Source: an uncultured Bacteroidales bacterium (GTDB taxonomy: Bacteria; Bacteroidota; Bacteroidia; Bacteroidales; Bacteroidaceae). Taken from it: a stretch of DNA of 64,000 nt. A model generated the notes under the pieces. It was not told the origin of the DNA. It did no database searches and was given only the letters and a program-made list of their open reading frames with translations. Where the stretch lies: the NCBI GenBank assembly GCA_937876995.1, contig CALEFD010000019.1:7858-71857 (forward strand). Reading direction: 5' to 3'. This document shows, piece by piece, positions 7,526 to 34,067 of this stretch (within the stretch, counting starts at the first letter, position 1; each line of letters starts with the position of its first letter). The position numbers were made by a program, and so were the translations under genes.

Positions 7526-7531
7526 ACAACA

Positions 7532-7558
7532 TTCCCCCGAAAGTTAATTTCGAGGGAA
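7532..7558. terminator. Hairpin between convergent operons (candidate bidirectional terminator)
   Basis: TTCCCCCGAAA (7532-7542), loop GTTAA, TTTCGAGGGAA (7548-7558). This gives an 11-bp stem with one mismatch, located between the stop at 7525 (+) and the stop at 7596 (-). Confidence 0.5.
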
Positions 7559-7595
7559 CGTCCGCAATTGGAATAATTTTGTACAATACTATATA

Positions 7596-10500
7596 TTACA
7601 TCATCACTTTCTTTCTGTTCACTATATAAACGCCGGTAGCATTTACAGGAACTTTTACTGTTGCACCCGGAGCAACATCTACCCTTGCTATAATCTGTCC
7701 CGATGTTGAATATACTGTAACCACTGTTTCAAAATCAAGTGATGATTCTATATAAATCACATGATTCTTTCCATATATATTCAAACCTCTCAACGGAGCC
7801 TGTTCTGCTATATAATCAGCATCACCACCTATTGGAATATATTCAAGAACATCGCCTCTGGTTGGAGCACCCTGGCTGTTTGTTTTCAAATATACTCGGA
7901 ACGGCACAGCAGCCTCTGTGTTATCACTTGATACAGCAAAACCTGAACCGTTTGCATCTATCTTATAGAAAGAACCTGTTTCGGCTGCAGGTGTATTCAA
8001 ATAGCTACCATATAATATATATCCATTTCTATCAGAAGTTAAATCAGATGGATCATATATATCAATATTTTGTTCCTCTTTTGAAACGTAGGTAACTACC
8101 TGAGCGTCCAATTTAACAGGAGCAGGAGTAGCAGTATTCTCTGCCTTAAAATTGCCGGACATATCAAATTCATAATATGCAACACCCGGATAAGCCACTA
8201 TATATGGAACATTCATTGTTGTCCAGATATAATCGCTATAATTACGTGTTGTATTATAATATTCAAAATAGTCGTCAGCATTTGCATCGTCCCTGTTATT
8301 CTTATTGTAATATGTATCGTACAGGAAGCTGTTGCTTACTGCATTATCACCAGATTCGTATCTTGAGTCATAACCTGCATCTCCTGCATTTGACATAGGA
8401 CGTACAAACTTCGCCATCTTCTCAGCACCTGCTGTCTCTACACCGGTGAATCCACGCAACCAGTATTCGTGTCCCTTATCTGAATCACCATAGAAGTGAG
8501 TTATTTCACCCTTGTCCTGTGTAGTCACCAGATCGGCAGTAAATGGCAGTATCAAACCTTCCCAACCATCTGTACTGCTGTTTGCATAATAAGCAGGTCT
8601 GCGCTGATACCACATATAGTAACCCTTACTGAAACTATATTCCTTTGGTGCTGCAAAGTTCTGCTTATCAACCAGGAATTGGCTTGTAGCTGCTCTATAT
8701 TCTCCTTTCTGCTGTTGACCTACAAGATGGAATAGTGGATATTTTGTTTCCTGCACTACATCTACTGTATTGTAACTCTTTTCAGGGTTTACAATCAGTT
8801 CCGGTTCATTCGCAGCGCTCATCAACACACTGTATGAATCTTCCTGTGAAGCATCGGCATATATCAGCATATTTCTGGTAAGTCCCTTTAGATAAATACT
8901 CTTTACTCCATCAAAATCAAGCCATGTATTATTAAATCCTGAACCAACTGTTTCTGTACCTGTAAAGTCTATAGCTGTTACATCCCTGTCTATAACCATT
9001 TCTTTATATGAATCTGTAAAGACAGCATCTCTGTTATAGTGAACCTCTGTAGCTACTTCTGTAGGCGACTGTACGGTATATGCAGGAGCACGGAATACAC
9101 GATTATCTGCATCCGTTACAGCATCTATCAATTCAGGTTCATAATCAATAGTAACATCATCTACGGTATTGGAATAACTGTATGTACGTTTCTCTATACG
9201 CATAGGATTATCATTATGATCCTTACCCTGCACCAGACCGTATGTCAGGTTCTGACCAAAGAAGATGTAATCATCTGGATAGATAGGAACAAATTTAGCA
9301 GCAGTACCTTTATCAGGATTTCCTTCTACATATCTAATTTCACCTACGCGATATGGTACTTCGCCCTTTTCGTAACGGAAATCACCCGTTTTCATTCTCT
9401 CCTCAACATAATCTGCATTTCCGTATAATGAGGATGGGTTCTCTTTTCCTTTAAATTCTTTAAGAGCAGGGAAAGCTGACACTCCGTTATTCTGTAGATA
9501 TGCGCCATCGCTACCGGAACGTTTTGTGCTGTTAGTAATGTCGCTGCGTTTCTGCTGATAGTAACCGTTCAGGTTATATGCTACAGTTCCATCTACAAAT
9601 TCACGTGTTGTTGCAGCAGTTGCGCCATTACTGTAACTACCGGTGTATTGCGTATTATTGTAATATGAATTTACTACAGAACCACCAGATGCAATTACCG
9701 GAGCTGTAGTTGGTGTAGCCGATGTAGATACCCAACTGTTATAAACCGCTCCGCCATTATCCGATATACCAGAAGTGGTGAATGAACCCGTCACACCTAA
9801 GTTATATACATTACCACATAACTTATCAAACAGTGAATGTGTCAAGCCACCTATTGTATAACCATCGCCATGCAGATTACCCTGGAAACAATTGTTAGAA
9901 TCTTCAACATCACCAAGCTTCCACTCTTTACCCTTATAGTACAATGGTTCTACATCACTCTGTAGTATAAACTCTAAGTTTTCGGCATACTGTATCTGTC
10001 CGTTATGTTTACCAACCCCATCAATCAGATGGTTGTTATACAACTCTATCAAGTAGTCAAATTCATTCAACTGAACCTCTGTACCATTTCTGTTTTCAGT
10101 ATATACATCATCATTGATATATATCTTTGGATTACGTAACATTGCAGGTTTTTGGGAATATGTATCAGTTATTGAATCCACAAACATATATTCCGGATGA
10201 TCCAATACATCCTTCAAACGATGATAGTTTGCCACAGAGAGTCTCACCGGACTTGAATAGGTTTTACCAAGATATGTCTTGGCATAGTATGCTATCCAGT
10301 ATTCATTCTGATACCAATAGAGCGGAGCACGTCCCTGCTGATATGCTACACCATTCTTATGAGCAAATGCATCGTGTTCGTTAGAGAATATCTCAAATCC
10401 ACCGCTCATAATTTCGTAAGCGCCCGGTGTTACAGTAGGTGTATTCATACCCAATACATCGCCGGGCAGTACGGTCTGAGGAGTCTGCAGTTCGCCTATC

Positions 10501-13500
10501 TTAGGAACGCCACTTTCAAAATGTACACGGATATTCACAATATGACGTTCTGTAATCTCTTCAAAGTTCACGCCCTCCTGATCGCTCTCTAAGTAGGTAT
10601 ATTCATAAACCACCGTTACTATTTTGTCTTCTGACAAGTCTCTTACATCGGCACTTCTTGGAACATACAGAGTTGATGTTTCAGTTGGCATAGTACCCTG
10701 CACCTGGAAACCTGTCTGCATATTTACCACGTGTTCATCGTAGGAAGCTTTTGTTATAACATCACCAACAGCTATACCTGTACCCTTAGTTTTTTCTGTT
10801 GTAGTTACTTCTGTTAGCTGATACTCTCCATTATCGGAATTAAGTACGTGTAGATTATTTCTATTCGTAAATCCATCAACACATACATAATATACGCCAA
10901 CCTCGGCAAATGAATACTGCATTACCGAACTTGCTGCTGTATTCTCATCTACTTTTAATTTTTCATAAACAGTATCTATCAATACCCTGCCTCGTGTGTA
11001 GTAACTATCGCCCACTTTGAATGTATTCTTAACTACATAGAATGTATTATCTTCACTCAGATGTTCATCTGTAACGTTTACCATTGCGAATTTGCGCTTC
11101 TCATTAGGCAGTTTTTCAAAATTAACATTATTCAGAACTACGTCTTTGGTTATTTCACTCAATGGTTTTCCATCTATATCGCTTATGTCTAAATCCGTTA
11201 CGGTCAAATTGGTCTCTCTAATGTATTTAGCGGTATAATCCACGCGCGTAGGACCACTGTATCTATTACCATCGTTTTCTGTATTAGGATCAACGTCTGC
11301 CGAAGGATCGTACAAATTTAAATTGCCATCAAAATTTGTACTTAACAAATCGAATGCATCTTTATTGAAAGTGAAATTTACACGTTCGTACGGTTGTACA
11401 CCCGCATATTGCAAAGCATCATAACTATTCGTTTCAATAAACAGATGACCACCAAACTTACCTGTTTTAGTACATAACCATGTTTTTGGTGTATCATTAT
11501 CACTGCCATCTATAGAGAAATAGTTCTTGAACTTCGGATTTATTTTTATAAGTTTTGTATATTCGCTAACAGGAATTATATCTCCATTGTAGCACCACTC
11601 CTCTTCGGCCTTTTCGAATGTCTGAATACACAATACCGCTTCCTCCAGATACTCTCTGACTGATGCATTACTTGATCTCTTATAATCGGATTGGGATATC
11701 ACATTACCTGCTGTAACATACATATCTATCTCCTGACTATTTTCGTCTAAGGTCTTGACGTGAATATTCTCTTTTGCTACGTATGCTATTTCAAACTCAG
11801 CTTGTTCTGTTGGTCGTGCTACATTTATATTATCTGCATCGGTAAGCAAATCCTGCTGCTCCTGCCATAGATCATTATTGATAATATCACCTGCATTGTA
11901 TATATACTGACCAAATATACCGCCTGTTACATTCTTAAATGAAGGACCCTGGATATAACTATCTTTTGTATCAGAACTTTCATAGGTTTCCTTATTTATC
12001 TGCATTGGAACACCGGATAACTGTGAATAATAGTCGTCCCATTGAGCAGGATTGTTCATCTTATATGTAAGCAGGAATCCTTCATCCTTACCCATATTAT
12101 TGGTAGGATGGAAGAAGTAAGATACAGGAACCTCCTTAAAAGCGTCCGCAGTTGTACCCTCAGGATCGTGAATCTTCACTTTCACATCACTGCTCTTTAA
12201 TGTCTCATACGCAGAAGGCAATATTACCTTACCTTTCTTATATGCCAAAGCACCAAGATCATTTCCATTTGTATCTTTTGTTTCGCCATCAATATTCAGT
12301 ACATCATCTATACATACGTATGTTGTCTTTGTAAAGAAAGCCTTTTCCGCTTCTGCAAGCCTGTTGTAATCCCAACTGCTTATAGGATCGTTTGTATGGT
12401 AATACTGACCTGCTATTCTAACAGAATCATCTGCTTCCAATTGTCTACCACCATAGTTCAAACCTTCGTAGTATGCATAATAGCTATCGTCAACACTTAA
12501 CAGTTGTAACTTACCATTAGCACCAGCTGTAATGCTCAGAGGGATAGATACCGATTCTGAATATGATTGCGGAGTACCTGTATAAGCAGATATTGTCTGG
12601 TTGTACAAATAGAAATCACCGCGAACATACCAATAGTGAGCCGGCGAAGTTTTATCACCATTATTAGGATAACAATCATCTACAATCTGTTTAAAACTAT
12701 GCACAAAGTTACCGGATGATGCATACTGCTCTGCATCACCTTCATAATTAAAGCGCTTATATGAAACGGCTTCATTGTTTGATTCAGCCAATGTTACATT
12801 ATTGGCTCCTGAATCTTTTCGTGTACCATGAATATTGTCTGCATAGACATAACCACCACCTTCGCCTACAGCTACATTTATAAGGTCAAGCTGAATAACA
12901 CCGGTAATTGGGCCATAATCTTTTTCTCCTGTCTGTTCATCTATATCCTTTACAATTTCAAGCCATACGCCACCGGCTAATGCTATTATATTTGCGCTCT
13001 TACCATTGTTACGGAACTTTGTACCGGCATTTTCAACTTTAAACGCACGGTAGGTTTCATTTTCTCCCGTAGGCTTATATGCATCTTCACCATTTTCAGT
13101 TACTCGTACAGCGTCATAATAATCTACACTGGAAGATACTGCTCCCAACCTGTTCACCACGTTGTATATACCAAAATAACATCCATGGTCTTTTGTTCCA
13201 TCTGAATTGTAACCACTTATTGGATATTTATCCTTAGTGATTTCATTCAATGAGAGTTCATTAAGTCGGTTAATTGTATATAGAGTAAAATCGGCAGTTG
13301 TGGTTTCGCGGTCTCTTGCACCCTTTAATACAACACGGCTGCCCCAAACACCACAGAAATCGGCACGCTGTATAGTGTTAATCATTCTACCTGCATATAG
13401 TGTTGCCAAACCGGCAAGTTTCCATTTACCCTGTTCTTCCGGTGGCATACTACCCCAAACAGAACCTGATATCTGGTCATCCACAACATACCAATGTTTC

Positions 13501-16500
13501 TTATTATTTGCGTCTGTATATTCGTGATTTTCCAAACAAATATACTTCAATTCATAGTATGCCTTTTTTCTTGGGTGCATTTTGGAATAATCATCGAATG
13601 TGATTTCGTGAGTCAGATTATGATAATCTGTACCATAGTTTGTAATATTCAGTTCTCTGTATCCATCTACAAGACTTAAGTTACCATCGCCATAGAAACC
13701 ACCTATGTTTTCTGTACTTACAGAGACCATATCACAATCAAATACATCCACTACCGATGCAGTTACATTACCAAACACAGTCTTAGCATCGGCCGTCATA
13801 ATATCGGTACCCTGAATTACATTACCACCGGCAAATACAGCATTACGTATGGTAATACCCTGTTCATCCATCTTAGCCCAGCGTTCATCATTAGCATACA
13901 GGGTATTCAAGTCTGTACAAGGAACAAAATCACCAGGATTATAACTATTAGAACCTATTTCAAAGTTTTGCAGAGCAACTGTAACCGGTGTTATCAACAC
14001 CTTGCAGTCTTCTGTCAATTTATCACTGGAATCATAATAGTGACCATCACTCTTTTTCTTTCCCTTAACAGAATAGACATAACCAATGTTACCGCCACCA
14101 AATACGTTACCAGCTCCTTCTTTCAGTGTCGCGTCTGTACCCACATTTCCTCTATGCAGATTAACTTCTGTCTTACCAAATACAAATCCGCTTGAATAGT
14201 AGATATTCTCTACCTCTAATGCTCCTGCTAAAGTATAGCTGAATCCGCGACCGCCACCAAATACATCGCGCTCTACTGTACCGCCATACATTGTAACCTT
14301 AGTACTACCTTCAGTAACCGGTTGAGTCCAATCTACCTCTTTAATGACTCCTTCATCAATCTTCATAGTAGCAAAACCTACTGAAGCTATTTCGCCACCA
14401 CCATATAATGAATGACGTATAGTACCTCCATACATCTCTACGTTGGTATTAACAGCCCAAGCTTTATCACCAAAACCACCACCATACAGGTTACCGTTGT
14501 TGGCAAGCAAATTCAGATCGTCCTGACTGTGTAGTTTTACGTTCGGGAAATATTTTCCTGTATTATAATCGTAATCGTAACCTACATAACCGTTATTCAT
14601 GGTAATATTGGTATTGGTTACTTTACCGCGTTCACCACCACCGTATGCAGAACGAAGAACTGCAGGTTTTCCCCAATCGATATCGGCCTCTTCCAATTCA
14701 TTATTTTTATTATATACTTTTTCTGATAAAGCACCATTCACTACCTGCTTTCGTAAACCGATGGTTACATCACTTTCGCCTTCAATATATCCCTCTAATC
14801 CGCCACCAAATACGCGACGCACCTTACCGCCATAGATTTCCAATATAGAGAGTACCTTTTTATCGGAATCAGAAGAAGACAACACTTTCATATTACCACG
14901 GGAACCGCCACCATATATGTCACCTTCCACTATACCGCCCAACAGACTTACGCTTGTTGCGCCATATACTGTAGCTGTTTCACCATAGCCACCACCAAAG
15001 ACATTCTCTTTTACTGTGGCACCCTTTTCAATTATAATGCGGGTATTTCTATATTCCAGGGCAGTTTCAGGGTCAGCATATACCCAGTGAGCATACTTTG
15101 TTGAATTAGTTGTATAATATTCATCCGCATCCGATTTATCATCGTATGCATATCTTACTGTACCGTCTAAAGCGCCACCATATACATTTCTAACTAAAGC
15201 GCCTTTATCCAGAGTAACCAAAGCATAACCTGTCACTGTATTTTTACCATGACCGGAAGCATAGACATCGGCATAATTATCGATAGATTGCATTACAGGA
15301 GCTTTTATCAGCACATTGGTATTCTTTGTAGCACGATACGATTTATTTCCGCCAAACAAACCTTCGCCTGTAATAAAGGCACCGGAAGAAGCGAACTTAA
15401 CATTTGATTGGCCTACATCGCAAGGCAAGCCTTCTTCAAAACCTACACTACCACCATAAATAGCCTTTACTCTGATGGTTGATGTTTCAGGAACAGTAAC
15501 ATTTGTTGTTTCGCAATAACCTTCGGCAAAAGAGCCGCCATAAGCATAACCTATATTACCTGCAGAGAGATTTACATTTGTAGTCTGCGCACCGGATTTT
15601 GCACCTGCACCATAAACGTTCAATCCCAGATTGTTCATTCCATAAACACTTACGTTGGTTGTTCCGCAATCGTAAGATATAGTTGTAGGTAAATCTTTAT
15701 GAGCAGCACCGAAAGTACCACCATATATTTCATCATAATAGCCACTTACTGCATCTACAGTAGTTTTCTCTACGTAAGAATAGTAAGCGCCACCAAATAC
15801 CTTACTAACCAAAGGTCCTGCACCATTTGTTACACGATCCTGATATGAACCTGTAGCAGCCAGATGAACGTATGTATCTTTAACATCAACTATTCCTGTA
15901 GAACCGCTGAAACCTTGTCCACCGCCATAAACAGCACCTATTATCTTATCCGTTTTAGTTGATGGCGATGCTATATGTACAAATGTATTGGCAGTAATAA
16001 AGTTTGTAGCTGTTTCAGTTACCGCTGTATTTAACACAGGATACTTATCTATTTGGAAGTTAGTATAATTATATGCACCATTTGCTCCACCGAATATATT
16101 TCCATGCACTATTCCGGAATAGTACTGAACCATAGTTTGAGCCTTCACATATTTATTACCATAACCATACTGTCCAAAAGAGACAGAGCCTATTACTGTA
16201 CCACCAAAGTCGTTTGCTCCATATACGTTATTTACAATATTGATAGGATTATCACTACCTGCACTCTGTGCAGAGCCTATAACGACTTTTGCTGTACCAT
16301 CAATATCGGCAAAACAGCTGCCACCAAATATGTCATAGAACTTACCACCCTGAACACTTACAGAAGCAGTACCGCCTACATTACCCTGCAATCCTCCACC
16401 ATACACCTTAAATGCGTTGTAATAACCTTCTCCTGGTTGTATTAGATTTTTATCCAGATTAATTGATGTACTTCCGGTTACAGCACCTAATTCACCACCG

Positions 16501-18986: not shown

Positions 18987-19009
18987 ACTCTTTTTTCTCT
19001 TTAAACTAC

Positions 19010-20044: not shown

Positions 20045-20058
20045 CTCTACTTTCCATT

Positions 20059-22235: not shown

Positions 22236-22245
22236 ATAGTTTTAC

Positions 22246-23310
22246 TCAATACTTACCTGCAAAACAGTCAAATACAATATCATTGATATCTTCCTGTTCC
22301 CAACCTGAAACCACAGGTTCAAAACGGATTTCGTTATTAGCTCCATTCATTGAGAATCCTAAATGATATACATAGCGTACACCTGCTTTAAATTCCCAAT
22401 TCTTGTTATAATCATACAGACTTACAGAAGCTTTCTGATTTGGACGAGCAGAGTAAATCTGACCATTCAGAGTGAATTCGTCAATATCATAAACTACAGA
22501 TATTGTCTGAATATCTACTTTTAAAGGAGTAGGCACCACTACAAACAGAGCACTCTTGTCTTGAATAGATGTCATACTGTCTATAGAAAGATATCTATCT
22601 TCCTGAGTAAGATATTCATCACCGCTAAACAGCACAAATTCTGTTGTATTATCCAGATTTGACCATTCTCCGCCTTTGCCCGGTTCAGGTCCATCAAGAT
22701 AATCGCCGGTAACGCTTACACCACCTACTCTAACCTCTTTAAGCCTGATTTTACCCTTCAGTTCATCGCGTGTAGTTGCATCGCGTGCAGTAACTACCAC
22801 CTGACTGGAAATATGCTTGAATACCATCTTTACAATTGGCATTTCTGTAGCTATCTGGTCATTTGTAGTTGCTACCAAAGGATCGGCCTGTTCACCTATA
22901 GCACTGCCCAAATTTACATTTGTAAGGTTCCATCTGAATGTCTCATTGACCATTTTCAGTTCTGCATTATCGGCGCTATACGGATAGTATGCGTAGAAAT
23001 CTACAGTTCCTTTTTCCGGCCAAAGATAAACATTGTCGCTCGCCGCTTTCCATTCACCCTCCTTATTCTCTATTACTACATTGTTCATAAGGAAGTTGTT
23101 TGGATTATCATCCACTATAGCAGAGACAGCAAACGATTCGGCTTCGGGGAACGATATTTCACCATTCTCCGATCCCCAAGGATTGATAAGCGCTTTAGTG
23201 CTTACTGTACTTGGACCAAATGTAACTTCTGTGCGTGGTATCAATAGTTCGTTCTGTGAACAACATATCAGCACCACAGCCACTGCTACTATTGTTAAAA
23301 CCCTCTTCAT
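22246..23310 (-). CDS. Fimbrillin-family lipoprotein, paralog 7
   Basis: 354 aa. Lipobox LICC. STKALI site. MVFKHISSQVVV. C-terminal NEIRFEPVVSGW. Confidence 0.6.
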   Translation of the reverse strand: MKRVLTIVAVAVVLICCSQNELLIPRTEVTFGPSTVSTKALINPWGSENGEISFPEAESFAVSAIVDDNPNNFLMNNVVIENKEGEWKAASDNVYLWPEKGTVDFYAYYPYSADNAELKMVNETFRWNLTNVNLGSAIGEQADPLVATTNDQIATEMPIVKMVFKHISSQVVVTARDATTRDELKGKIRLKEVRVGGVSVTGDYLDGPEPGKGGEWSNLDNTTEFVLFSGDEYLTQEDRYLSIDSMTSIQDKSALFVVVPTPLKVDIQTISVVYDIDEFTLNGQIYSARPNQKASVSLYDYNKNWEFKAGVRYVYHLGFSMNGANNEIRFEPVVSGWEQEDINDIVFDCFAGKY

Positions 23311-23378
23311 ATCTATATTTTAGAGGTTAATAATTCTCTTTCTTCTAAATATTGTTCTTTACTATATCAATTACCTGT

Positions 23379-24440
23379 TTAAGGCTGCTGATCAGGCACA
23401 TCGTAATCTTCTTTATAATCATCTTTATCAGCGGCATCTTCACCTGGATACCATTCAGCAACTGAAGGTGAGTAAAGAATTCTATCAGCATAAAGTGTAA
23501 GATTCAATGTATATTTCTTACCCATAGCCAATGCTGTTAAAGCGTCATTTGTACCGGAATTCAGATACACATCCTTACTTGTTGAAGTTGTAACATTATT
23601 ATATGTCATTGAGTAAGAGATAACCAATTTCTGCTGCTGATCAACCAAAGCTTGTGGAATAACCAAAACCGGAGTTCCTACTTCTGTAGCAGTTGTTGAC
23701 AATGCGCCGGTTACTGAGCTAAGTATATTAAATTCAGCTTCGTCATTAGAAGTTTCGCTCCATGAAGCTACAGCACTCTCTGTAACGGTTAATGTTGCAT
23801 CATCATTCATATCCTGTAGAGATATACTGTTGATTTTGAATGTAGCACCAGTATATGTATCTGCAACTTTCGCTTTCACTACAATCTGTGATAGTGCGTG
23901 ATTAAATGTAATACCTACACCATTACCACCATCTGCGACACCTTCTTCATCTGTTGCATAACCTACATTTTGGCTATCTTTTGTCAAACCGGTTCTAGGT
24001 GTTGAATACATCAAATCTACCGGGTCTGTTTCTTTGCCAGCAGCAACAAAAGGAATACTCAATTTTTTTTCAGCTAACGTATATGAGGCTACAATTGAAC
24101 TTGGGGACCATGCAACCATTCCTAACGTACCTGATAAAGGCCAGTATGCAACAGGATTTGAAACAAATGTTTTTTCAGTTGCATCATAAGAACAAACTGC
24201 ACCTTTTCCATCGTCGCCATTAATGTATATTTTTGTTTCTGAACCTGAATTATGATATGCATATAGACCAAAAGAGAGGTCTGAAGGATACTTATTTCCT
24301 TCAATTATTGCTTTTGAATTCACTGCTTTGTACTGTAATGGTGAAAAGCCAATCTCTTGTCTCTCCACAATTGATTCATTCTGGGTGCAGCTAACCAAAG
24401 CTATTGTGGCTAATGCTGCTAAAAATAGACTCTTTTTCAT
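23379..24440 (-). CDS. Fimbrillin-family lipoprotein, paralog 6
   Basis: 353 aa. Lipobox LVSC. QEIGF strand. NSKAII site. DLMYS. ITFNHALSQIVV. C-terminal ADRILYSPSVAEW followed by an acidic tail. Confidence 0.7.
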   Translation of the reverse strand: MKKSLFLAALATIALVSCTQNESIVERQEIGFSPLQYKAVNSKAIIEGNKYPSDLSFGLYAYHNSGSETKIYINGDDGKGAVCSYDATEKTFVSNPVAYWPLSGTLGMVAWSPSSIVASYTLAEKKLSIPFVAAGKETDPVDLMYSTPRTGLTKDSQNVGYATDEEGVADGGNGVGITFNHALSQIVVKAKVADTYTGATFKINSISLQDMNDDATLTVTESAVASWSETSNDEAEFNILSSVTGALSTTATEVGTPVLVIPQALVDQQQKLVISYSMTYNNVTTSTSKDVYLNSGTNDALTALAMGKKYTLNLTLYADRILYSPSVAEWYPGEDAADKDDYKEDYDVPDQQP

Positions 24441-24474
24441 AATTTTTCTGTTTTAGTTATCTCTTTAATTGAGT

Positions 24475-25596
24475 TTATTGTACTTCTGGAACAGTATAAT
24501 CACCACTGCCTGTTTCATCCCAAGCAACTACATCTGGTGAATAGAGAATTTCATCGGCTGAAATGCTCAAGTTCAGTGTATAAACCTTATTCTGTTCTAA
24601 TGTTTCAAGTACATCATCCTTAAACAATGTAACAGTTTTGGTAGTTTCTGTTACTACTTCATCATCATCCACCTGATTGTTAGGATCTACAGTCATAGTG
24701 TAAGTTACTTTCAGAGTAACACCATCAAGTGACTGAGGTATTGCCAAAAGACCATTGCCAGCAGTTTCCGCATTCATATAAGTAACAGTATCACTATTAG
24801 CTGACAATTCTTTATATGTTGCAGGAGCATAGAAATCAAAAGTTGTCAAATCATTAGATACATCAGACCAAACTGCTGCATCATTAGTTACTGTAAGGGT
24901 TGCATTATCTTTAAGGCCAACTACCTGGATTTGCTTCAGATTATAGGTTGCAAAACCACTATAATCTTCTGCTGTCTTTGCAGTAATCTTAATACGGCAA
25001 AGTGCATGGTTAAACAGAATAGGTACACCTTTATATGTAGTTGTATTCAGTCCATCAGCATCATAATTGGTATCATTTGCAGTCTTATCCTTTGTATGAG
25101 TACTCCACATCAAATCCTTTTGGTCTGTTGTACCTGCTACAAAGTTGCTTATAGTCAGCACTGAATTAGCAGAAGTCACATTACCTTCACTATCTGTACT
25201 TACATCTATAGAATGTGTAACATCATCATTTACTGAATATGGTGAATAGGCAACAAAGGTCAAAGACCCCTGCAAAGGCCAGAAACTCTTTGGGTTTGTG
25301 CGCCAATTGCCACTTTCATAACTGACTTTCTTATTGTCTATATACAATTTTGCATCGGCCTTACTTGCGTCGAAAGTCTTGCCATCAGCAAGTTGATAAG
25401 CGAACAGACCAAATGAAGGAGCATCTGTTCCGTAAGTAGCACCGGTAATCACGTTTGCTTTTGTCTGTGAAGCTTTGTAGGCTAATGGCTGGAAGCCTAT
25501 CTCCTGCTGTTCAACTATTGATTCATCTTTTGTACAGCCTGCCAAAACCATTGCGGCAACAGCTGCTAAAAACATACTCTTTTTCATATTTTTCAT
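24475..25596 (-). CDS. Fimbrillin-family lipoprotein, paralog 5
   Basis: 373 aa. Lipobox LAGC. QEIGF. QTKANV site. DLMWS. ILFNHALCRIKI. C-terminal ADEILYSPDVVAW. Closest in sequence to paralogs 4 and 6. Confidence 0.7.
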   Translation of the reverse strand: MKNMKKSMFLAAVAAMVLAGCTKDESIVEQQEIGFQPLAYKASQTKANVITGATYGTDAPSFGLFAYQLADGKTFDASKADAKLYIDNKKVSYESGNWRTNPKSFWPLQGSLTFVAYSPYSVNDDVTHSIDVSTDSEGNVTSANSVLTISNFVAGTTDQKDLMWSTHTKDKTANDTNYDADGLNTTTYKGVPILFNHALCRIKITAKTAEDYSGFATYNLKQIQVVGLKDNATLTVTNDAAVWSDVSNDLTTFDFYAPATYKELSANSDTVTYMNAETAGNGLLAIPQSLDGVTLKVTYTMTVDPNNQVDDDEVVTETTKTVTLFKDDVLETLEQNKVYTLNLSISADEILYSPDVVAWDETGSGDYTVPEVQ

Positions 25597-25611
25597 TATT
25601 ATAGAAGGTTC

Positions 25612-26667
25612 TTATTTAATTGGGTAATTCTCGACATTAGTTGTTTCTGACCATGGAACAATGCTTGGTGAGAATAGAATCTCATCGGCACCAATTGACA
25701 ATGTAATGGTGTACTTTTTATTTGCGTTAAGTGTAGCTCCCACTATCTCGCTAAGTTTCTTAGAAACAGTTTTCTGAGTGTCAGGGACATTTTCTCCATT
25801 AATATGAGTCATAGTGTAAGTTACCTCTAACATAATATCATCTGCCAATGTCTGTGGCATAATCATTAAAGGCAAACCAAGTTCTTTTTCTGCATTATCC
25901 AAACCAAAAGCAGATGATAATGAAACAAATGTAGCATCATCGGTAGTAGTTGTTTTCCAACCATCTACACTACCATCTGTAGCGTTAGTTGCTACAACAT
26001 CTTTAACCACTGTAAGTGTACCTTTATTGGCAACGTTTGTAATCTGAATCTTGTCTATCTGCACAGTATTTGCAGGATGATCATTATTTACAGCCATAAA
26101 TCTAACCTGCGCTAATGCGTGATTAAAGACTACTGGAACACCCTGCTTGCTACTATTTTCGTAAGATGTAGTATTGGCAGTAAGATCATCTGCATCAGCA
26201 ATCTTTGAATACATTAAATCTGCCTGATCTGCCACAGTTGTAGAAGATGAGAAATCTGTTACAGTAAGTGTAGCTGTCTGATTAGCAAAAGCACTATTTG
26301 CAGTTGCAGGCGATACAGCTACAAATGTAAGAGAACCGGACATTGGCCAATAATACTTAATAAAAGCATTACCTGTCCACGGTCTCCAGATCTTGTATGC
26401 ATCTGCGCCGTCGTACGCTACTTCTGTACTAAAATAGCTTTCTGAAGATGCAAAATTTGTCAAATAATCGCCCTCTCTTACCAAAGCTGCAAACACTTTG
26501 AAGTTTGGGGCATCAGTACCATAAATAGCACCTTCAATAGGAGCCTTGGTCTGTTTGAAATTGTAGGCACGGAAACCTATCTCCTGAGGCTCTGATGTCA
26601 GTTCCTCCTTAGCACATCCTGCAAATAGTAACATTGCAGATGTCATAAATAATACGACCTTTTTCAT
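25612..26667 (-). CDS. Fimbrillin-family lipoprotein, paralog 4
   Basis: 351 aa. Lipobox FAGC. QEIGF. QTKAPI site. DLMYS. VVFNHALAQVRF. C-terminal ADEILFSPSIVPW. Confidence 0.7.
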   Translation of the reverse strand: MKKVVLFMTSAMLLFAGCAKEELTSEPQEIGFRAYNFKQTKAPIEGAIYGTDAPNFKVFAALVREGDYLTNFASSESYFSTEVAYDGADAYKIWRPWTGNAFIKYYWPMSGSLTFVAVSPATANSAFANQTATLTVTDFSSSTTVADQADLMYSKIADADDLTANTTSYENSSKQGVPVVFNHALAQVRFMAVNNDHPANTVQIDKIQITNVANKGTLTVVKDVVATNATDGSVDGWKTTTTDDATFVSLSSAFGLDNAEKELGLPLMIMPQTLADDIMLEVTYTMTHINGENVPDTQKTVSKKLSEIVGATLNANKKYTITLSIGADEILFSPSIVPWSETTNVENYPIK

Positions 26668-26707
26668 ATTTTTGTTCTTTAAATTTTTTCAGTTATATAA
26701 GTACTTA

Positions 26708-27703
26708 TTACTCCATATCGACTGTAGATACCTGAACCTCTACCCAATCGTTAATGCTTGGAGCGAAGTTGATTTCGTCAAGTTTGAAGTTCAAGGTATA
26801 GATATACTTCTTACCCATCTGCCATTCGGTTGCAGCTGCATTATTTGCTGTAGCCGGGTTAAGCGCAATATTGAAAGTGTATTCTATATCGTCTGTATTC
26901 TGCATTGAGACTGTAAATACAACATCGGCAGTTGCAGCTGTTTGCGGAATAAATAGCAGAGGCGCACCGTATGTTGCAGCAGGAGTACCTTGAGCTGTCT
27001 CAACAGCTGCTGCACTTGTTTGTGCATAATATGAATAATCTGATGTCTGGTCTGTATTCTTGCTCCAGCCTGCTATTGGAGTAGCCAAAGAATTATTCTG
27101 ATTAAAATCTGCTGTTAAATCTACATTCTTAAAGGTGATTGAATTGATTTTAACTGTTGCATCTGCATAAGTGTCGTTGGTCTGATAGCGGAACTCTATC
27201 TGGCTGAGTGCATGGTTAAACACCATAGGAAGAGCAGCCTGCTCAGGTCCTACATTGTACGCATACATCAAATCAGTTTCTTGAGTATTTGGAGAGATAG
27301 CATAATCTGCTATTGTTGCACCAGTATTCCAGGTAAAAGCAGGAACGGTTGTTTCGGGATAAAAAGCATAGAAACCAACCTTACCCTGATTTGGCCAATA
27401 GTAGTGGTTTGTGGCATTACGCCATTTGTCTTCATCTGCCAAATATGAAATCTCCACACCTTTCATAAAGTTTGGTGCAGCGTCTGCAGCCACATCAGAA
27501 AAATCGCCTTTCTGTGTATAGTAACCCCACACTTTGAACTTTAAATTTTCTGTGAATGTACCTCCGGTAATTATAGCTTTAGTATTCTTACGTACCACTG
27601 CATTGAAACCTACTTCGTTAAGTTCCGGTGTATCAATCTCATTCTGTGTACAAGCTGTCAAGCCAAGTACTGCCAATATTGTAAAGAATTTTAAAGTTTT
27701 CAT
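26708..27703 (-). CDS. Fimbrillin-family lipoprotein, paralog 3
   Basis: 331 aa. Lipobox LTAC. NEVGF. NTKAII site. DLMYA. MVFNHALSQIEF. C-terminal DEINFAPSINDW. Confidence 0.7.
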   Translation of the reverse strand: MKTLKFFTILAVLGLTACTQNEIDTPELNEVGFNAVVRKNTKAIITGGTFTENLKFKVWGYYTQKGDFSDVAADAAPNFMKGVEISYLADEDKWRNATNHYYWPNQGKVGFYAFYPETTVPAFTWNTGATIADYAISPNTQETDLMYAYNVGPEQAALPMVFNHALSQIEFRYQTNDTYADATVKINSITFKNVDLTADFNQNNSLATPIAGWSKNTDQTSDYSYYAQTSAAAVETAQGTPAATYGAPLLFIPQTAATADVVFTVSMQNTDDIEYTFNIALNPATANNAAATEWQMGKKYIYTLNFKLDEINFAPSINDWVEVQVSTVDME

Positions 27704-27750
27704 ATTATTTTCTCCTTATTATATATTATATGGTTCTATTTTTTCTATTT

Positions 27751-28782
27751 TCAAATCTCAAAATCTATGTTATTTCCGGTTTCCCAGTTCTCTACTGTAG
27801 GATCAAAAGATATTTCGTTCAGACCAATTCTTATATTATAGGTGTAGATATATCCCATCTTCCACTCTTGTACTGTAGAGAAATATTTGGTATCGGTAGA
27901 TGTACTGCCATTGTCAAATTCTATGGTATATACTATTTCTACTGCATCTATATCCAAGTTCTGTCCCCACTTGTATCCACTTGCATTTTGCGGAATAGGC
28001 AGAATTGGGGTTCCAACCTGGACAGATGTTGTTCCATCTATAACTAAAGATACAGGCGATGATACCACTACATAATCTGAAGCCTGAGAATAGTTACTCC
28101 AGGAACCTGTTTCGCGTGTTCCATCGGTAGTCGCATAATCTGCCATTGTATTTAAGCCATGCAATACAAGTTTATCTATAGTGATTGCACTTACATTGGT
28201 ACCGGCTGTATAATTAAAGTTACTCTGCGCTCTGAACTTTATCTGCGATAACAGATGACGGAAAGTTACAGGAACAGGGGCAACAGAATTCTTTTTTTCT
28301 GTAATTAAATCGGCAGCCATTAGGTCTATCTGCTTGTTTACATCTGTTGGAGCAACAAAATCTGTAAACGATACACCTTCTGTATATGATGCCGATATAG
28401 TTCCATTAAATTCATACGGACTATAACAAGCAAAGGTTAAAGAGCCCTCTGATGGCCAGAAATATTTTTTTGCAATATTTCTCCAGGAACCATCTGTTGC
28501 ATCCTTTTCTATTTCCACATTATCCATATAGTTTGCTGCTGCCCAAGAACCATCTTCCAATTGGTGGAAAGCATACACTCCAAAGTGTTCTGCTTCATTA
28601 TATGCAGAACCTATAATCCCAAAGACATTTGCTTTGGTGGAATTAAGAGCAACCGCCTTGAAACCTATCTCTTCTCTTTCAACGCTGTACTCTTTTTCTG
28701 TGCAAGCCATAAAGGCTGGCACCAAGGTTAACAAAATGTAATAAAACCGTTTCATGTTATCTGTAAATATTATTTTTTCCAT
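27751..28782 (-). CDS. Fimbrillin-family lipoprotein, paralog 2
   Basis: 343 aa. Lipobox FMAC. EEIGF. STKANV site. DLMAA. VTFRHLLSQIKF. C-terminal NEISFDPTVENW. An alternative start at Met10 (nt 28755) is possible. Confidence 0.7.
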   Translation of the reverse strand: MEKIIFTDNMKRFYYILLTLVPAFMACTEKEYSVEREEIGFKAVALNSTKANVFGIIGSAYNEAEHFGVYAFHQLEDGSWAAANYMDNVEIEKDATDGSWRNIAKKYFWPSEGSLTFACYSPYEFNGTISASYTEGVSFTDFVAPTDVNKQIDLMAADLITEKKNSVAPVPVTFRHLLSQIKFRAQSNFNYTAGTNVSAITIDKLVLHGLNTMADYATTDGTRETGSWSNYSQASDYVVVSSPVSLVIDGTTSVQVGTPILPIPQNASGYKWGQNLDIDAVEIVYTIEFDNGSTSTDTKYFSTVQEWKMGYIYTYNIRIGLNEISFDPTVENWETGNNIDFEI

Positions 28783-28787
28783 TTTCG

Positions 28788-29801
28788 TTAAGGAACTTGA
28801 ATTCTATTCACGCTTATCTCTGTCCAATCTGTAACCTCTGGATTGAATGTAATTTCATTTAAATTGAAATTGAGAGTATAAACGTATTTAGTACTTAAAT
28901 CCCAACTCTTTTGCAATGTTGATATATCTTTAACCAACTGACCGGTCATAACAGTTCCATCGGCTTGAATCATTCTATATGAAATACTGATAGATGTTTT
29001 TGCGTTATCTGCCTTGCTCAGTTCTTGCGGCATCATTACCATTGCAGTTGAATAGGTACTTGCAGTAGCAGAAAGAGACTTCTTATCGTCTGAATACAAT
29101 ATGTTCTCTATCTGGCAGTCTGTATTATCAATCCAACTTCCCATGCTTGAAGGCTGAACATATTTGAATGTTGCCTGCAAATCAACATTTAAGAGTTGAA
29201 TCTCATCTATATAGAATTCCACATCCGGATAGTTCTCTTCTAATTTAAGAGCGAACTCTATTTGCGATAAGGCATGCTTAAACTGAATAGGCAGCGCCGT
29301 TGAACGATTTGTACCTAATGTATAAGCATACATCAAATCTGTATATTTAGATGTTACGTCCAATTTATAATTTTCAACAACCAAACCGTTACCTTTAAAT
29401 TCCGGTGCCTGTACTCCCGATAGCCCGGATGGATATATTGCATAAAAACCAATCACACCTGTTGTTGGCCAATAGTAATACTTATCCTTATTACGCCATG
29501 CTTCAGGGCGTGAAGCATCATTTCCGGAAGTCCATTCTATTTTGAGGCCATCCATAAAGTTCGATGTTGAATTATCTGCAAATTCATTAAACGAACCATC
29601 ATTGGAATAGAAACCCCAAATATCGAATGATTCTGTTTGTGGCAAAGCACCGGCAGACAATATTGCTTTTGTAGCATTACCGGTAACAGCATTGAACCCT
29701 ATTTCCACAGTTTCCGGCATATAGGACTCATTTGTGGCACAAGATGCCAAAAGCCCCAATGCTATTGCTAAAACTGATAATTTCTTTCTCTTCACTTGCA
29801 T
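28788..29801 (-). CDS. Fimbrillin-family lipoprotein, paralog 1 (start revised to an internal Met)
   Basis: The longest ORF reaches 29846 but would overlap the upstream gene by 34 nt. Met16 (ATG 29801-29799) gives a canonical lipoprotein signal, MQVKRKKLSVLAIALGLLASC. VEIGF. ATKAIL site. DLMYA. IQFKHALSQIEF. C-terminal NEITFNPEVTDW. Confidence 0.7.
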   Translation of the reverse strand: MQVKRKKLSVLAIALGLLASCATNESYMPETVEIGFNAVTGNATKAILSAGALPQTESFDIWGFYSNDGSFNEFADNSTSNFMDGLKIEWTSGNDASRPEAWRNKDKYYYWPTTGVIGFYAIYPSGLSGVQAPEFKGNGLVVENYKLDVTSKYTDLMYAYTLGTNRSTALPIQFKHALSQIEFALKLEENYPDVEFYIDEIQLLNVDLQATFKYVQPSSMGSWIDNTDCQIENILYSDDKKSLSATASTYSTAMVMMPQELSKADNAKTSISISYRMIQADGTVMTGQLVKDISTLQKSWDLSTKYVYTLNFNLNEITFNPEVTDWTEISVNRIQVP

Positions 29802-29812
29802 ATCTTCTGTAA

Positions 29813-30916
29813 TTATAAGTCTATATAATGATGTTCCTCTTCCCATTCTGAAACACCCGGTTGGAAACCACCGCCTCCACTACCTGCAGGTGGGTCGGGA
29901 ACAACAATTTCATCCTCAATAATAATCTTATGTTCAGGATTATCCAAAAATTCATCTGTAATATCCTTATGCCACTCTACGGTCTGTCCCGACTGTGTAG
30001 TCAGAAATATAGTTAGCCATAGTTTTGTCTCTTTACCCGGCAATTTACCGAAAGTATTAAAGGTACTGTGTACCATATCATTATCGGCTGCATCACTGCC
30101 TGCATATAGCGGGAAATACAATGAGACATTATCGTCCGATTTTCCCTCCTCTTTAGGATATGCTATAAAATTAGAGCCTATCTGTCCTGTAAGCAGTGCG
30201 TTTGCAGACGCCATGTGCTTGATATTCTTAACACGCACACTTAAGTAATAGGTCTCAACAACTGTCTCTGCTTCTACTTCTACTACCTGTTCTTCCACAT
30301 CGTTGTAGATTGTTACATTTTCACGAGCCACAAACAGATGGTCAGGTTCATAGACTATTTTTGTATTTTCCAGTCCGTCCATTGATTCAGCCCACTCCTT
30401 ATCTTCGTTCGATATGGTATCGCCCTCTATATCATCGTCGTCAATAACGACCGTATCGCCTTCTGCTCTTGTGTGTGCTCTATGACGGGCAGATTTTGTC
30501 TCTATTTCTGCTTTGGACCTGCCTATTACACTAAGCGCCTTATTCTTAATCTGCTGAGAGATTTCGTTAGTATATGCCTCCATCTGATACAACTGCATAT
30601 CGTTACGTATCAGAGTAGATTCTGTATCAAAATTATACACTATCAGTTTGTAATCGCCCGGAGGAACACTTATATAACCACCTTCTGACGGGATATAGTC
30701 TTCTGTAAAACGACGATTTGTATTAGGATCGTAGAATATAACACGCATTACTTCTACTTTAGGAGGTTCTTCTACATTTTGTATTTGCAAATTGATTTTC
30801 AAACGCAGCAACAAGTTCTTATTGAGATCGCTAAGCGGACGCAATTCACATGACGTCAACAGAATTAACGCCATCAAAATTGTAATATACTTAGAATATC
30901 TCCTACTCATATCCAA
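29813..30916 (-). CDS. DUF5119-like lipoprotein (fimbrillin-clan; possible anchor/accessory subunit)
   Basis: 367 aa. Lipobox LLTSC followed by ELRPL. The block VMRVIFYDPNTNRRF...GGYISVPPGDYKLIVYNFDTES is typical of DUF5119. The C-terminus GGGGFQPGVSEWEEE echoes the F-x-P-x-V-x-x-W tail of the fimbrillins. Confidence 0.55.
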   Translation of the reverse strand: MDMSRRYSKYITILMALILLTSCELRPLSDLNKNLLLRLKINLQIQNVEEPPKVEVMRVIFYDPNTNRRFTEDYIPSEGGYISVPPGDYKLIVYNFDTESTLIRNDMQLYQMEAYTNEISQQIKNKALSVIGRSKAEIETKSARHRAHTRAEGDTVVIDDDDIEGDTISNEDKEWAESMDGLENTKIVYEPDHLFVARENVTIYNDVEEQVVEVEAETVVETYYLSVRVKNIKHMASANALLTGQIGSNFIAYPKEEGKSDDNVSLYFPLYAGSDAADNDMVHSTFNTFGKLPGKETKLWLTIFLTTQSGQTVEWHKDITDEFLDNPEHKIIIEDEIVVPDPPAGSGGGGFQPGVSEWEEEHHYIDL

Positions 30917-30921
30917 ATTAT

Positions 30922-32238
30922 TTATTTGCTTTTCAAATTCAAATTAATAGGTCTGACCAAAGAAAACTTAATATTGGTTGGACCAAAATATTTCACTCTA
31001 CCGGCCTTATTGACATCTTTAATCAATCTGTCATAGTTCAAAGATGGATAATAGTGCTGATATGTAATATTTGCATAACCCACAGATGCCGCCATTTCAA
31101 AATTCCACTTTTTCTTCTTTCCTACAGGGAAGGAATATCCATAAGATGCACCTGCAGACCAAATTTTTCCTTGATAACACAAATCAAAATAGTACTGGAA
31201 GTCATATAGGCCGGTATAACCGTATAGCCCAACAAAATGACCGCGCAACTTCTCGTTACGATTTTCAGGTTTTTTAAACCAATATCTTACCTCCGGTCCC
31301 ATAACCCACAATTCATAACACTGTTTGTATCCGTTATGATACCAAGGGAAGATGTCTTCAAAATGCACTGACAGATGTTTACCAATAGGAATTTCTAACG
31401 TAACATTTGGAGCCATCACTGCGTCAAACAGCAAATTAGTTTTAAGAGCAGCTATAGTTACAGGCTCTTTTTCAACCGGCAATCTATCCATTACAGGATA
31501 GTCAATCTCTTTTAATCTATCCGGCAGTGGTTTTACTGTTAGACCTTGAGTATAAAAATTCGTTGGAAGATTATGTTTCTTATATTTGATTTGCACGCCG
31601 GCACCTCTCAATACAGGGTAGTATGTACGATACAAATATCTGTAAACTGCACCCACTGATGAATCGTAGCCCAATCTGTTCTCCATTCTCCACTTTTTGG
31701 TTTCTATACTGATTTCTTCTTCGGGGAAGATAACAGAGAGTACTTTCTCTTTGGTTTTTTCAGAAAGCAATGTATCGTCTTCTACGTATATAGACAAATC
31801 ATCCCACGCTTCTATAACGCTATGCACCAATATTTTTTCCTGCAACATTGGCCAATTTCTGCGCATATATTCGCTAATAACCTCAGTTCTATGCTCTGTA
31901 AGCCATTTGTTACGCAAATACACACCTTCAGGTGAAGATTGTACTACTATCTCAATTTCCAGGATATTTTCTGTTCCTACTGATTCAATTGCCTTGTGCA
32001 ATCTGTCCAAAGATATTGAGTTATCTCTATAATCTTCATACAGTTTCTCATCGTTCAGGCGGAACAAAACATCAGTTTCAAATGTTTCGTAAAGATCTAT
32101 GTAGATGGAGTCAACAAAGAGAGTATCACTTGATGAAGCAGATGTATTAACATCAGCAGGCGCAACCATTGCCTGTACAGGCAGCATAAAGCAGGCCAGT
32201 ACCGAAAACAATATACATTCCAACGCTCGTTTCATCAT
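30922..32238 (-). CDS. DUF3575-type outer-membrane beta-barrel protein with a ~240-aa N-terminal extension; first gene of the pilus-like operon
   Basis: 438 aa. Signal peptide (…ACFMLPVQA/M). The C-terminal part ALKTNLLFDAVMAPNVTLEIPIG...RGHFVGLYGYTGLYDFQ...GASYGYSFPVG...FGPTNIKFSLV matches the DUF3575 pattern I recall from Bacteroidales fimbrial loci. Confidence 0.65.
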   Translation of the reverse strand: MMKRALECILFSVLACFMLPVQAMVAPADVNTSASSSDTLFVDSIYIDLYETFETDVLFRLNDEKLYEDYRDNSISLDRLHKAIESVGTENILEIEIVVQSSPEGVYLRNKWLTEHRTEVISEYMRRNWPMLQEKILVHSVIEAWDDLSIYVEDDTLLSEKTKEKVLSVIFPEEEISIETKKWRMENRLGYDSSVGAVYRYLYRTYYPVLRGAGVQIKYKKHNLPTNFYTQGLTVKPLPDRLKEIDYPVMDRLPVEKEPVTIAALKTNLLFDAVMAPNVTLEIPIGKHLSVHFEDIFPWYHNGYKQCYELWVMGPEVRYWFKKPENRNEKLRGHFVGLYGYTGLYDFQYYFDLCYQGKIWSAGASYGYSFPVGKKKKWNFEMAASVGYANITYQHYYPSLNYDRLIKDVNKAGRVKYFGPTNIKFSLVRPINLNLKSK

Positions 32239-32303
32239 ATTTGTAGTTCTTGCCTTGTTCGCTTTTATATAACACGCACGCTCTCACGCGCGTACATAGT
32301 TCG

Positions 32304-32311
32304 CAAATATA
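32304..32311 (-). promoter_or_regulatory. Candidate Bacteroidetes -7 promoter box (TAnnTTTG) for the pilus-like operon
   Basis: Plus strand CAAATATA equals minus strand TATATTTG, about 66 nt upstream of the ATG at 32238. It is the only TAnnTTTG match on the minus strand in this intergenic region. Confidence 0.4.
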
Positions 32312-34021: not shown

Positions 34022-34067
34022 TAGGTTTCTTTATATGCCTTTAAGGCACTATATTAAATATATTTAG

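Follow-up and report, generated by a model that had tools for sequence, protein, structure and literature searches.

A divergent pilin-like gene paired with a giant-protein gene at the end of a pilin-array operon in an uncultured Bacteroidales bacterium

What does a gene for a 3,796-aa protein do at the end of a row of ten pilin-like lipoprotein genes, and do the two belong to one surface structure? The question is raised by an operon in a 64,000-nucleotide stretch of DNA (hereafter the window, meaning the whole stretch analysed) from an uncultured Bacteroidales bacterium (GCA_937876995.1, contig CALEFD010000019.1, positions 7,858 to 71,857), for which the nearest named source is an uncultured Bacteroidaceae metagenome-assembled genome (MAG) from yak rectum. 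The operon comprises 13 co-directional open reading frames (ORFs) on the minus strand at 7596-32238, called g1 to g13 in their order along that strand: a DUF3575 gene, a DUF5119/Mfa2-family anchor, ten fimbrillin-like lipoproteins and the giant. We lean towards reading it as an expanded Mfa-like type V pilus operon, in which the giant takes the role that Mfa5 has in Porphyromonas gingivalis and the last pilin-like protein, g12, serves as its adaptor. The strongest signal, absent from a preliminary description of this DNA, is that g12, counted there as the tenth paralog, forms a subfamily of its own and is nearly always found paired with the giant.

The giant and its divergent pilin partner

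The g12 gene (19010-20044, minus strand, as are all operon features below) encodes a 344-aa divergent fimbrillin-like lipoprotein, the putative adaptor. It had no Pfam match, and its blastp alignments to the other pilins were weak or marginal. A look-up of its exact sequence turned up no database record. Compared singly with a profile of g3-g11, it reached 88.9% in hhalign over 176 columns, while a g12-family profile built from 33 sequences of related loci reached 98.7% (E 1.8e-16) over 287 columns, essentially full length. On these sequence comparisons g12 is best classed as a separate subfamily of the array's pilins, tied to them by profile-profile comparison only. Most family members carry a lipobox and a T[KR]A site, mostly TRA, and the family has a strongly conserved C-terminal tail, PTYLYxLSDxD(L)DNPxI. 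Against the PDB, the family profile gave a marginal match only, to the fimbrial protein BF1861 (E 0.15).

We scanned metagenomes with an N-terminal alignment of the giant, which matched at least 490 stretches, and retrieved 80 loci whose ORFs were searched with the window proteins. Upstream sequence reaches 1.3 kb or more in 71 non-duplicate loci, and in 70 of them the gene immediately before the homologous giant is a g12 homolog, the gap having a median of 11.5 nt. Given this near-universal adjacency, g12 is the leading candidate for a coupler between the giant and the remaining system. The pair was never found free-standing among loci with enough upstream sequence, and a DUF3575 gene lies upstream of it in many loci. 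In every one of the 27 loci with at least 9 kb upstream, four to seven co-directional lipoprotein ORFs (at least 250 aa, with a lipobox-like motif, the g12-like gene included) occupy the preceding 10 kb. The sole locus with sufficient upstream sequence and no g12 homolog, L026:4088-15193, encodes a giant whose C-terminal tail is atypical.

The giant itself, g13 (7596-18986), begins with a Sec signal peptide, MNIIS...LLLALSVLSIMPVQA|LD, which has no lipobox (read by eye from the translation). It continues with a region of [YF]GG repeats (about residues 40-1650) and a non-repetitive acidic part (about residues 1750-3700), and ends in a putative C-terminal sorting domain (CTD) of the secretion system of type IX (T9SS). 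Residues 43 to 1629 contain 37 copies of the [YF]GG motif, most of them spaced by about 25-34 or 50-61 residues, and glycine makes up 10-21% of this region. No Pfam family matched the giant at E <= 0.01 and no PDB sequence at E <= 1, and no enzyme signature was detected in it. DUF6110, Anti-RecBCD_p2 and Inhibitor_I36 appeared at chance level when the whole protein and four pieces of it were searched at E <= 10, and were treated as noise.

An AlphaFold2 model of residues 1-900, made with 30 homologs, is almost all beta (pLDDT 87.4, pTM 0.88). When this model was compared with the PDB using Foldseek, nearly all of the matches were beta-helix proteins, among them Awp1, PL6 lyases, Ag43, pertactin, tailspikes and tapirin, every one at E >= 0.5 and with TM <= 0.18 on the query. 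Because all of these E-values are 0.5 or higher, a beta-helix or beta-solenoid-like fold class for the repeat region is suggested by the model, not proven, and the 'giant beta-helix protein' of the preliminary description has gained qualitative support only, from the all-beta model and the character of the Foldseek list. If each coil takes about 28 residues and adds about 0.48 nm, a rod of some 25-30 nm would result for the repeat region, which is a very rough estimate. The model of the last 999 residues (pLDDT 76.2) gave weak Ig-like matches only; its Foldseek matches to alphavirus E2 and Ig domains (TM about 0.06) are to generic beta-sandwiches and were set aside as carrying no functional evidence.

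The last 95 residues of the giant (7599-7883) are the predicted T9SS type A sorting domain. TIGR04183 scored only E 0.087 on the whole giant, and matched 39 of 45 tails (the window's own and 44 orthologous ones) at E <= 0.01, the best at 1.4e-7. Within the CTD, Gly84 and Tyr86 of a GVYIV motif and the near-terminal Lys92 are invariant or nearly so, and a 74%-identical homolog is named 'T9SS type A sorting domain-containing protein' by NCBI. The type B model (TIGR04131) was absent from the matches of the NCBIfam scan, which list type A. These sequence data support, at the level of the family, the assignment of the giant's tail as a T9SS type A CTD. The earlier claim of a T9SS-sorted giant therefore holds for the family, while the window's own tail falls short of the model's cut-off, a point we return to below.

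Homologs of both ends of the giant are numerous in Bacteroidaceae, Prevotella and Bacteroidales MAGs. The 45 distinct complete loci encode giant homologs of 3,701-4,231 aa (median 3,902), and five query segments of the giant (N, mid1, mid2, C and tail) match along the length of these homologs. An exhaustive search with the middle 1,000 residues gave 195 clusters at 50% identity, 134 of them at E <= 1e-30; most cluster members are 3.4-4.7k aa long and match at an equal relative position. Many database entries of 1,000-1,700 aa are fragments or split genes. Giant homologs at L006:3451-15091 and L004:2-7452 are broken up over two or three successive ORFs, which could reflect frameshifts, assembly errors or pseudogenes; splitting of this kind accounts for the many database 'homologs' of only 1,000-1,700 aa.

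Two types of locus carry the family. Type 1 resembles the window: a g1-like gene comes first, several Mfa_like_1 genes follow, and a g11-like and then a g12-like gene lead up to the giant. Type 2 has a DUF3575 gene (sometimes with OmpA and TPR genes), lipoproteins of about 640, 356, 600 and 400 aa, a g12-like gene and the giant; at L070:952-2538 a type-2 DUF3575 gene is followed by OmpA and TPR. We take the sizes of the type-2 lipoproteins to echo those of P. gingivalis mfa1-mfa5. A single match to a fimbrial Pfam family (FimA) was obtained for them, profiles of the approximately 640-aa and 356-aa proteins had no PDB match, and hhalign found no significant relation between the type-2 profiles and g2 or the Mfa_like_1 paralogs, signal peptides alone being aligned. 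The view that type-2 lipoproteins are pilins is thus a provisional one, drawn from size, lipoboxes, position and the one FimA match.

Further very large genes follow the giant homolog or fragment at L004:7499-17452, L005:13689-23645 and L007:10572-15473. They carry CHB_HEX_C_1/Fn3_assoc or Peptidase_M26_N domains and make these loci apparent clusters of giant surface proteins. At L005:1-9900 a C-terminal fragment of a giant adjoins phage- or mobile-element-like genes (VapE, family A DNA polymerase, PDDEXK, MerR), and this giant may have been disrupted by an inserted element. In the literature we found no description of the giant family, of its pairing with a divergent pilin, or of large pilin arrays upstream of it. 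The locus type is common in rumen and gut metagenomes and apparently uncharacterised.

The operon and its pilin array

The operon is tightly packed. From g1 to g13 the spacers are, in order, 5, -34, 5, 47, 40, 15, 34, 68, 10, -4, 14 and 23 nt, the value of -34 between g2 and g3 arising from the longest-ORF start of g3; Met16, just ahead of the signal peptide, would give +11. A Bacteroides-type candidate -7 promoter box, TATATTTG, lies at 32304-32311, 66 nt upstream of the g1 ATG, and is the sole non-coding TAnnTTTG on the operon strand in the range scanned (7,500-32,550). At the other end, a terminator-like hairpin with a 15-bp stem followed by a T-run (7528-7562) lies 34 nt past the giant's stop codon, and no comparable hairpin was found in any of the g1-g13 spacers. 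Judged by these signals, the operon is probably expressed as one transcript, from the promoter near 32311 to the terminator at 7562-7528.

Other promoter searches added little. The strict -33/-7 pattern had no match in the operon. A sigma-70 scan was discarded, having found fewer sites than in shuffled sequence with a consensus unsuited to Bacteroidota. An invertible promoter was also sought, and just short, imperfect inverted repeats were found around the promoter. A TAnnTTTG at 21198-21205 lies within g10, 73 nt ahead of where g11 starts, and may either serve the conserved g11-g12-giant module as an internal promoter or be a chance match.

The preliminary description had proposed a compact, co-directional operon of 13 genes behind one candidate promoter, resembling a type V pilus operon and containing ten fimbrillin paralogs. 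The ORF listing and the sole non-coding TAnnTTTG confirm the first part. The second is borne out by the gene content: beside a DUF3575 gene and an anchor of the Mfa2 family there are ten pilin-like lipoproteins, and the giant at the end has a predicted type A CTD. The third is right with the caveat that, by Pfam, blastp and hhalign, g12 is a separate subfamily and g11 is distant. Pfam searches of the window proteins matched DUF3575, DUF5119, Mfa2 and Mfa_like_1, and missed g6, g7 and g12.

The first gene, g1 (30922-32238), encodes a secreted protein of 438 aa, of which residues 263-428 match DUF3575, a predicted outer-membrane domain (Pfam, E 6e-31). Its N-terminal 260 residues (31459-32238) had no Pfam match, and loci L008, L019 and L041 have a conserved counterpart of them in their first gene (E 1e-39 to 1e-42). 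The second gene, g2 (29813-30916), encodes a 367-aa lipoprotein of the DUF5119 and FimB-Mfa2 families (Pfam; DUF5119 E 2.5e-23, Mfa2 29.8 bits against a cut-off of 21.2), and is the putative pilus anchor and terminator. Its lipobox cysteine is Cys23, and no [ST][KR]A site follows it.

The ten pilin-like proteins, g3-g12, are 331-373 aa long. Seven pass the Mfa_like_1 cut-off in Pfam: g3 (28788-29846), g4 (27751-28782), g5 (26708-27703), g8 (23379-24440), g9 (22246-23310), g10 (21129-22235) and the more distant g11 (20059-21132), with E-values of 1e-16 to 2e-28 and g11 listed at 7.7e-16. The products of g6 (25612-26667) and g7 (24475-25596) fall below Pfam detection and are linked by blastp, as paralogs, to g5 and g8 (1e-30 to 1e-59). 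Pairwise blastp identity among g3-g10 is merely 21-41%, which indicates that the duplications are old.

All proteins from g2 to g12 have a lipobox cysteine, at residues 17-36. In ten of ten pilins an [ST]K|A motif aligns 22-28 residues past this cysteine (22-25 in g3-g10), and its K and A are invariant columns of the pilin alignment; the motif is absent from the anchor. We take its spacing and position to resemble those of the site in FimA and Mfa1 that Arg/Lys gingipains cut before strand exchange. Gingipain maturation of pilins is described as a general process (PMC7835359, PMC10202324). At the C-terminus, g3-g10 share a conserved ...EIxFxPxVxxW motif followed by a tail of 10-23 residues after the tryptophan; in g11 an equivalent tail was recognised only after realignment by eye. 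These tails are candidate donor strands, as far as sequence allows us to infer.

Two PDB entries match the g3-g11 profile, 4k4k (E 1e-12) and 3t2l. Each was deposited as a 'putative cell adhesion protein', and we assume the two to be Bacteroides structures of the type V pilin superfamily. The second-to-last pilin gene, g11, is conserved in Mfa_like_1-rich loci, and g11-like genes lie directly upstream of g12-like genes in L008, L013, L019, L041 and others.

To the preliminary description, ten subunit paralogs feeding into a giant terminal protein lay well outside the known pattern of type V operons. Close relatives, chosen via g12 homologs on long contigs, correct the impression of a one-off outlier and confirm the conservation of the arrangement of many fimbrillins plus giant, a common and apparently uncharacterised one: at 63-90% g12 identity they carry 9-10 pilins in the same order. 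In L088 (g12 90% identical), L091/L092 (84%) and L090 (73%), a DUF5119 gene is followed by nine Mfa_like_1-type genes and then by a g12-like gene and the giant, the last being 3,782-3,821 aa long. L089 (63%) has both a DUF3575 and a DUF5119 gene, eight Mfa_like_1-type genes and, after them, a g12-like gene with its giant of 3,818 aa. L089 has no g9 ortholog, leaving nine pilin-like genes and indicating that single array members are gained or lost. The four close relatives thus have 10, 10, 10 and 9 pilin-like genes with order kept, and eight or nine array positions are one-to-one orthologs in the same order. Even in the distant L093 (26%), a g12-like gene and a giant of 3,726 aa stand together with at least seven Mfa_like_1 genes.

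Conservation is uneven along the operon. Between the window and L088, identity is 97-98% for g3-g6 and g9, 94% for g10, 90% for g12 and 88% for the giant, and lower for g11 (82%), g7 (79%) and above all g8 (37%), the hypervariable position of the array. With the gene at the same position in the relatives, g8 shares 37% (L088), 52% (L090) and 74% (L089) identity, while g3-g6 and g9 are 95-98% identical in L088 and L090, and blastn alignment breaks exactly over g8 (compare L088:5557-6660 and L090:5547-6674). This pattern suggests, from sequence comparison, recombinational allele exchange or strong diversifying selection. In L090 and L089 the blastn alignment also breaks at 19198-19416, inside g12.

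The giant varies in its residues 1-1000 and 2301-2500 (window about 15987-18986 and 11487-12086), with 58-98% identity per 100-residue block. Its residues 1301-2300 are much better kept: the blocks reach 92% or more in comparison with L088, and 80-98% with L090 and L089. The variable patches (g8, the g12 patch, the giant's N-terminal region and its residues 2301-2500) could mark exposed or ligand-facing surfaces; strain variability in g7, g8, g11, part of g12 and patches of the giant is as expected of surface-exposed parts. No inverted repeats of 24 nt or more, and no long or near-identical tracts between paralogs, were found.

The operon is wedged between surface-polysaccharide genes. By synteny with L002 and L003, positions 1-7525 encode glycosyltransferases, including a Stealth-family enzyme, that converge on the giant. 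On the other side, at 32531-37587, genes for a Polysacc_synt flippase, an SIS-domain protein, a PfkB kinase and a sulfatase-family protein diverge from g1.

A proposed assembly of the fibre and alternative explanations

Multi-pilin modular type V operons and a T9SS-dependent pilus component, Mfa5, are already known, and the preliminary description was right to name Mfa5 as the precedent. Mfa5 is a tip component of the fimbriae, carries a T9SS CTD and is not expected to take the gingipain and strand route (PMC7835359, PMC13655056), and neither it nor Mfa4 has a donor strand (PMC13655056). Like the window operon, the P. gingivalis mfa operon consists of co-directional pilin lipoprotein genes with an Mfa2-family anchor and with Arg/Lys-type maturation sites, which in the window operon are candidate ones. 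The product of its last gene, too, is no lipoprotein but has a Sec signal and a T9SS CTD, the latter predicted for the giant, and Mfa5 joins the fibre without strand exchange (PMC7835359, PMC13655056, PMC8512630). The type-2 relatives share with it a layout of five lipoproteins plus a CTD protein, here after a DUF3575 gene. In contrast to the mfa operon with its three or four, the window operon contains ten pilin-like genes; a DUF3575 gene opens it, and its pilins are of the Mfa_like_1 family, not of the Mfa1 or FimA families. Unlike Mfa5, the giant has no vWA or other Pfam domain and belongs to a family without a solved or described member; it is also about three times as long as Mfa5. Because the vWA domain is missing, we regard the giant as an analogue of Mfa5, not a homolog.

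Bacteroides fragilis has 93 type V pilin genes in 22 operons (bioRxiv 10.1101/2024.11.15.621889). Bacteroides type V operons resemble the window operon in being modular and multi-pilin, with anchor, stalk and tip homologs and a specialised tip gene at the 3' end. The B. fragilis operons average roughly four genes, whereas the window has eleven pilin-superfamily genes, and its 3' position is held by a T9SS giant behind a dedicated divergent pilin. Flavobacterium johnsoniae SprB is comparable as a T9SS-exported surface protein of several hundred kDa, encoded in an operon with dedicated partner genes (PMC10202324). It differs in having a type B CTD, in needing SprF and in serving gliding motility, whereas the giant's tail matches, at family level, the type A model and its partners are pilin-like lipoproteins, not a SprF/PorP-family gene. 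The all-beta N-terminal repeat model and its Foldseek list recall beta-helix proteins such as pertactin, Ag43, Awp1, PL6 lyases and phage tailspikes, but the matches are non-significant and the giant has neither an autotransporter barrel nor a catalytic family signature.

These data allow us to propose how an expanded Mfa-like pilus might be built. Following established type V pilus biology, g3-g12 would be made as lipoproteins and moved to the cell surface. By analogy, a Lys/Arg-specific protease would trim the pilins at [ST]K|A, removing the lipid and the first strand and opening a groove, and the pilins would then join through strand exchange, each via its own C-terminal tail. The anchor g2, having no cleavage site, would remain lipidated and would both anchor and terminate the fibre, with g1 as an outer-membrane accessory protein. 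The giant would be exported by Sec and then, as for P. gingivalis Mfa5, across the outer membrane by the T9SS via its CTD. There g12 would hold it on or beside the fibre, and it would present its rod together with about 2,000 residues of non-repetitive domains as a distal binding surface. Cleavage, polymerisation, subunit order, contact between g12 and the giant, and adhesive function are the steps of this scheme that we infer.

Several points weigh against it. A type A CTD normally leads to attachment to anionic lipopolysaccharide (A-LPS) on the cell surface, with no pilus needed, and many 'fimbrillin-like' lipoproteins have, to our knowledge, never been shown to polymerise. The giant's own 95-aa tail scores 21.2 bits with TIGR04183 (E 2e-4), just below the cut-off of 23. 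No pilin-like acceptor domain was detected in the giant, and Pfam and PDB sequence searches found neither a vWA domain nor the Ig-like domains that would follow one; the vWA domain of Mfa5 is reported to be needed for its incorporation (PMC7835359). The adjacency of g12 and the giant argues for a functional link and does not imply contact. With its strand-like tail and cleavage site, g12 itself resembles an internal or adaptor pilin and not a terminal tip. Neither a T9SS gene nor a candidate maturation protease was identified in the flanking sequence covered (1-7,525 by synteny and 32,531-46,038 by Pfam). Finally, 20 further TAnnTTTG motifs lie inside operon genes in the range scanned for promoters (7,500-32,550, minus strand), so internal promoters are possible.

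The main rival takes up some of these points. The giant may be an independent T9SS cargo that is attached to A-LPS after removal of its CTD and forms a fibril of its own, with g12 as a dedicated outer-membrane partner or chaperone for docking, folding or retention and the pilin-like genes merely co-transcribed. The type A CTD itself speaks for this, surface anchoring on A-LPS being the usual outcome for such cargo, as do the length of the giant, sufficient for a fibril alone, and the absence of a pilin-like domain in Pfam, PDB and Foldseek comparisons. The g12-giant pair also persists in type-2 loci with an entirely different upstream pilin set, which shows it to be the conserved unit. For T9SS effectors in general we refer to PMC10202324. 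Yet lipoprotein ORFs precede the pair wherever upstream sequence suffices (four to seven, g12-like gene included), with a DUF3575 gene in many loci, and g12 keeps the pilin hallmarks of lipobox, T[KR]A site and strand-like tail; we consider the independent cargo rather unlikely. Still less probable, in our estimate, is a complex that never polymerises, in which the fimbrillin-like lipoproteins would form a binding platform or sheath that works with the giant and makes no filament. Polymerisation has been demonstrated for few members of the superfamily, there is no known chaperone or usher equivalent whose presence could be checked, and pilin-tip-like proteins that stay periplasmic and do not enter pili have been described (10.1101/2024.11.15.621889). 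This is countered by the Mfa2-family anchor gene, by a cleavage motif invariant in ten pilins and absent from the anchor, and by the conserved C-terminal tails, which make sense mainly for assembly by strand exchange.

The number of pilins invites another explanation, also raised in the preliminary description as a reservoir of antigenically distinct stalk subunits: the ten could be alternative or variable stalk subunits that provide antigenic or ligand diversity. The g8 allele, 37-52% identical where its neighbours are 95-98% identical, the greater variability of g7, g11 and g12, and the loss of g9 in L089 would fit such a role, and the g8 swap does show population-level diversity at one position. 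All ten genes, however, stand in one operon with tiny spacers. Neither inverted repeats of at least 24 nt nor near-identical tracts between paralogs were found, and no recombinase was identified in the flanking genes examined (1-7,525 by synteny, 32,531-46,038 by Pfam). The paralogs, at 21-41% identity, are old, and eight or nine positions have one-to-one ordered orthologs, which points to retained roles and not to interchangeable cassettes. The reservoir is thus poorly supported, only g8 behaving like a swapped allele, and we think variable subunits improbable. Retention of nine or ten ordered orthologs argues instead for distinct roles, as parts of a heteropolymer or as ordered adaptors.

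Within an expanded Mfa-like operon a more specific arrangement is possible, and we put it forward tentatively. Members of the g12 subfamily may be coupling pilins specialised in linking two export pathways that are otherwise separate. On one side, g12 would come to the surface along the lipoprotein route and be built into the fibre through strand exchange, the paralogs forming an ordered heteropolymeric stalk and not a homopolymer; on the other stands a T9SS-exported protein of about 420 kDa. Here the highly conserved PTYLYxLSDxDLDNP tail of g12, or its opened groove, would capture the giant.

Meaning for type V pili and their carriers

Type V pili are major colonisation factors of the Bacteroidota, and their mechanism is known almost entirely from two P. 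gingivalis operons, in which Mfa5 is the one known T9SS-dependent component. For the question of how Mfa5 joins the fibre, the locus type described here offers a much larger natural data set, with at least 490 metagenomic stretches and about 130-190 clusters of an undomained family of 3.7-4.7k aa, and g12 with its conserved tail is a concrete candidate for a coupling element. Since most carrier organisms come from rumen and gut metagenomes, the giant may be of importance there in attaching to plant fibre, to mucus or to other microbes, although its sequence points to no ligand. If g12 is indeed a coupling pilin, the pilus would carry a beta-solenoid 'harpoon' longer than many short type V pili, and the pair would stand for a general and so far undescribed mechanism by which giant adhesins are mounted on the pili of rumen and gut Bacteroidales.

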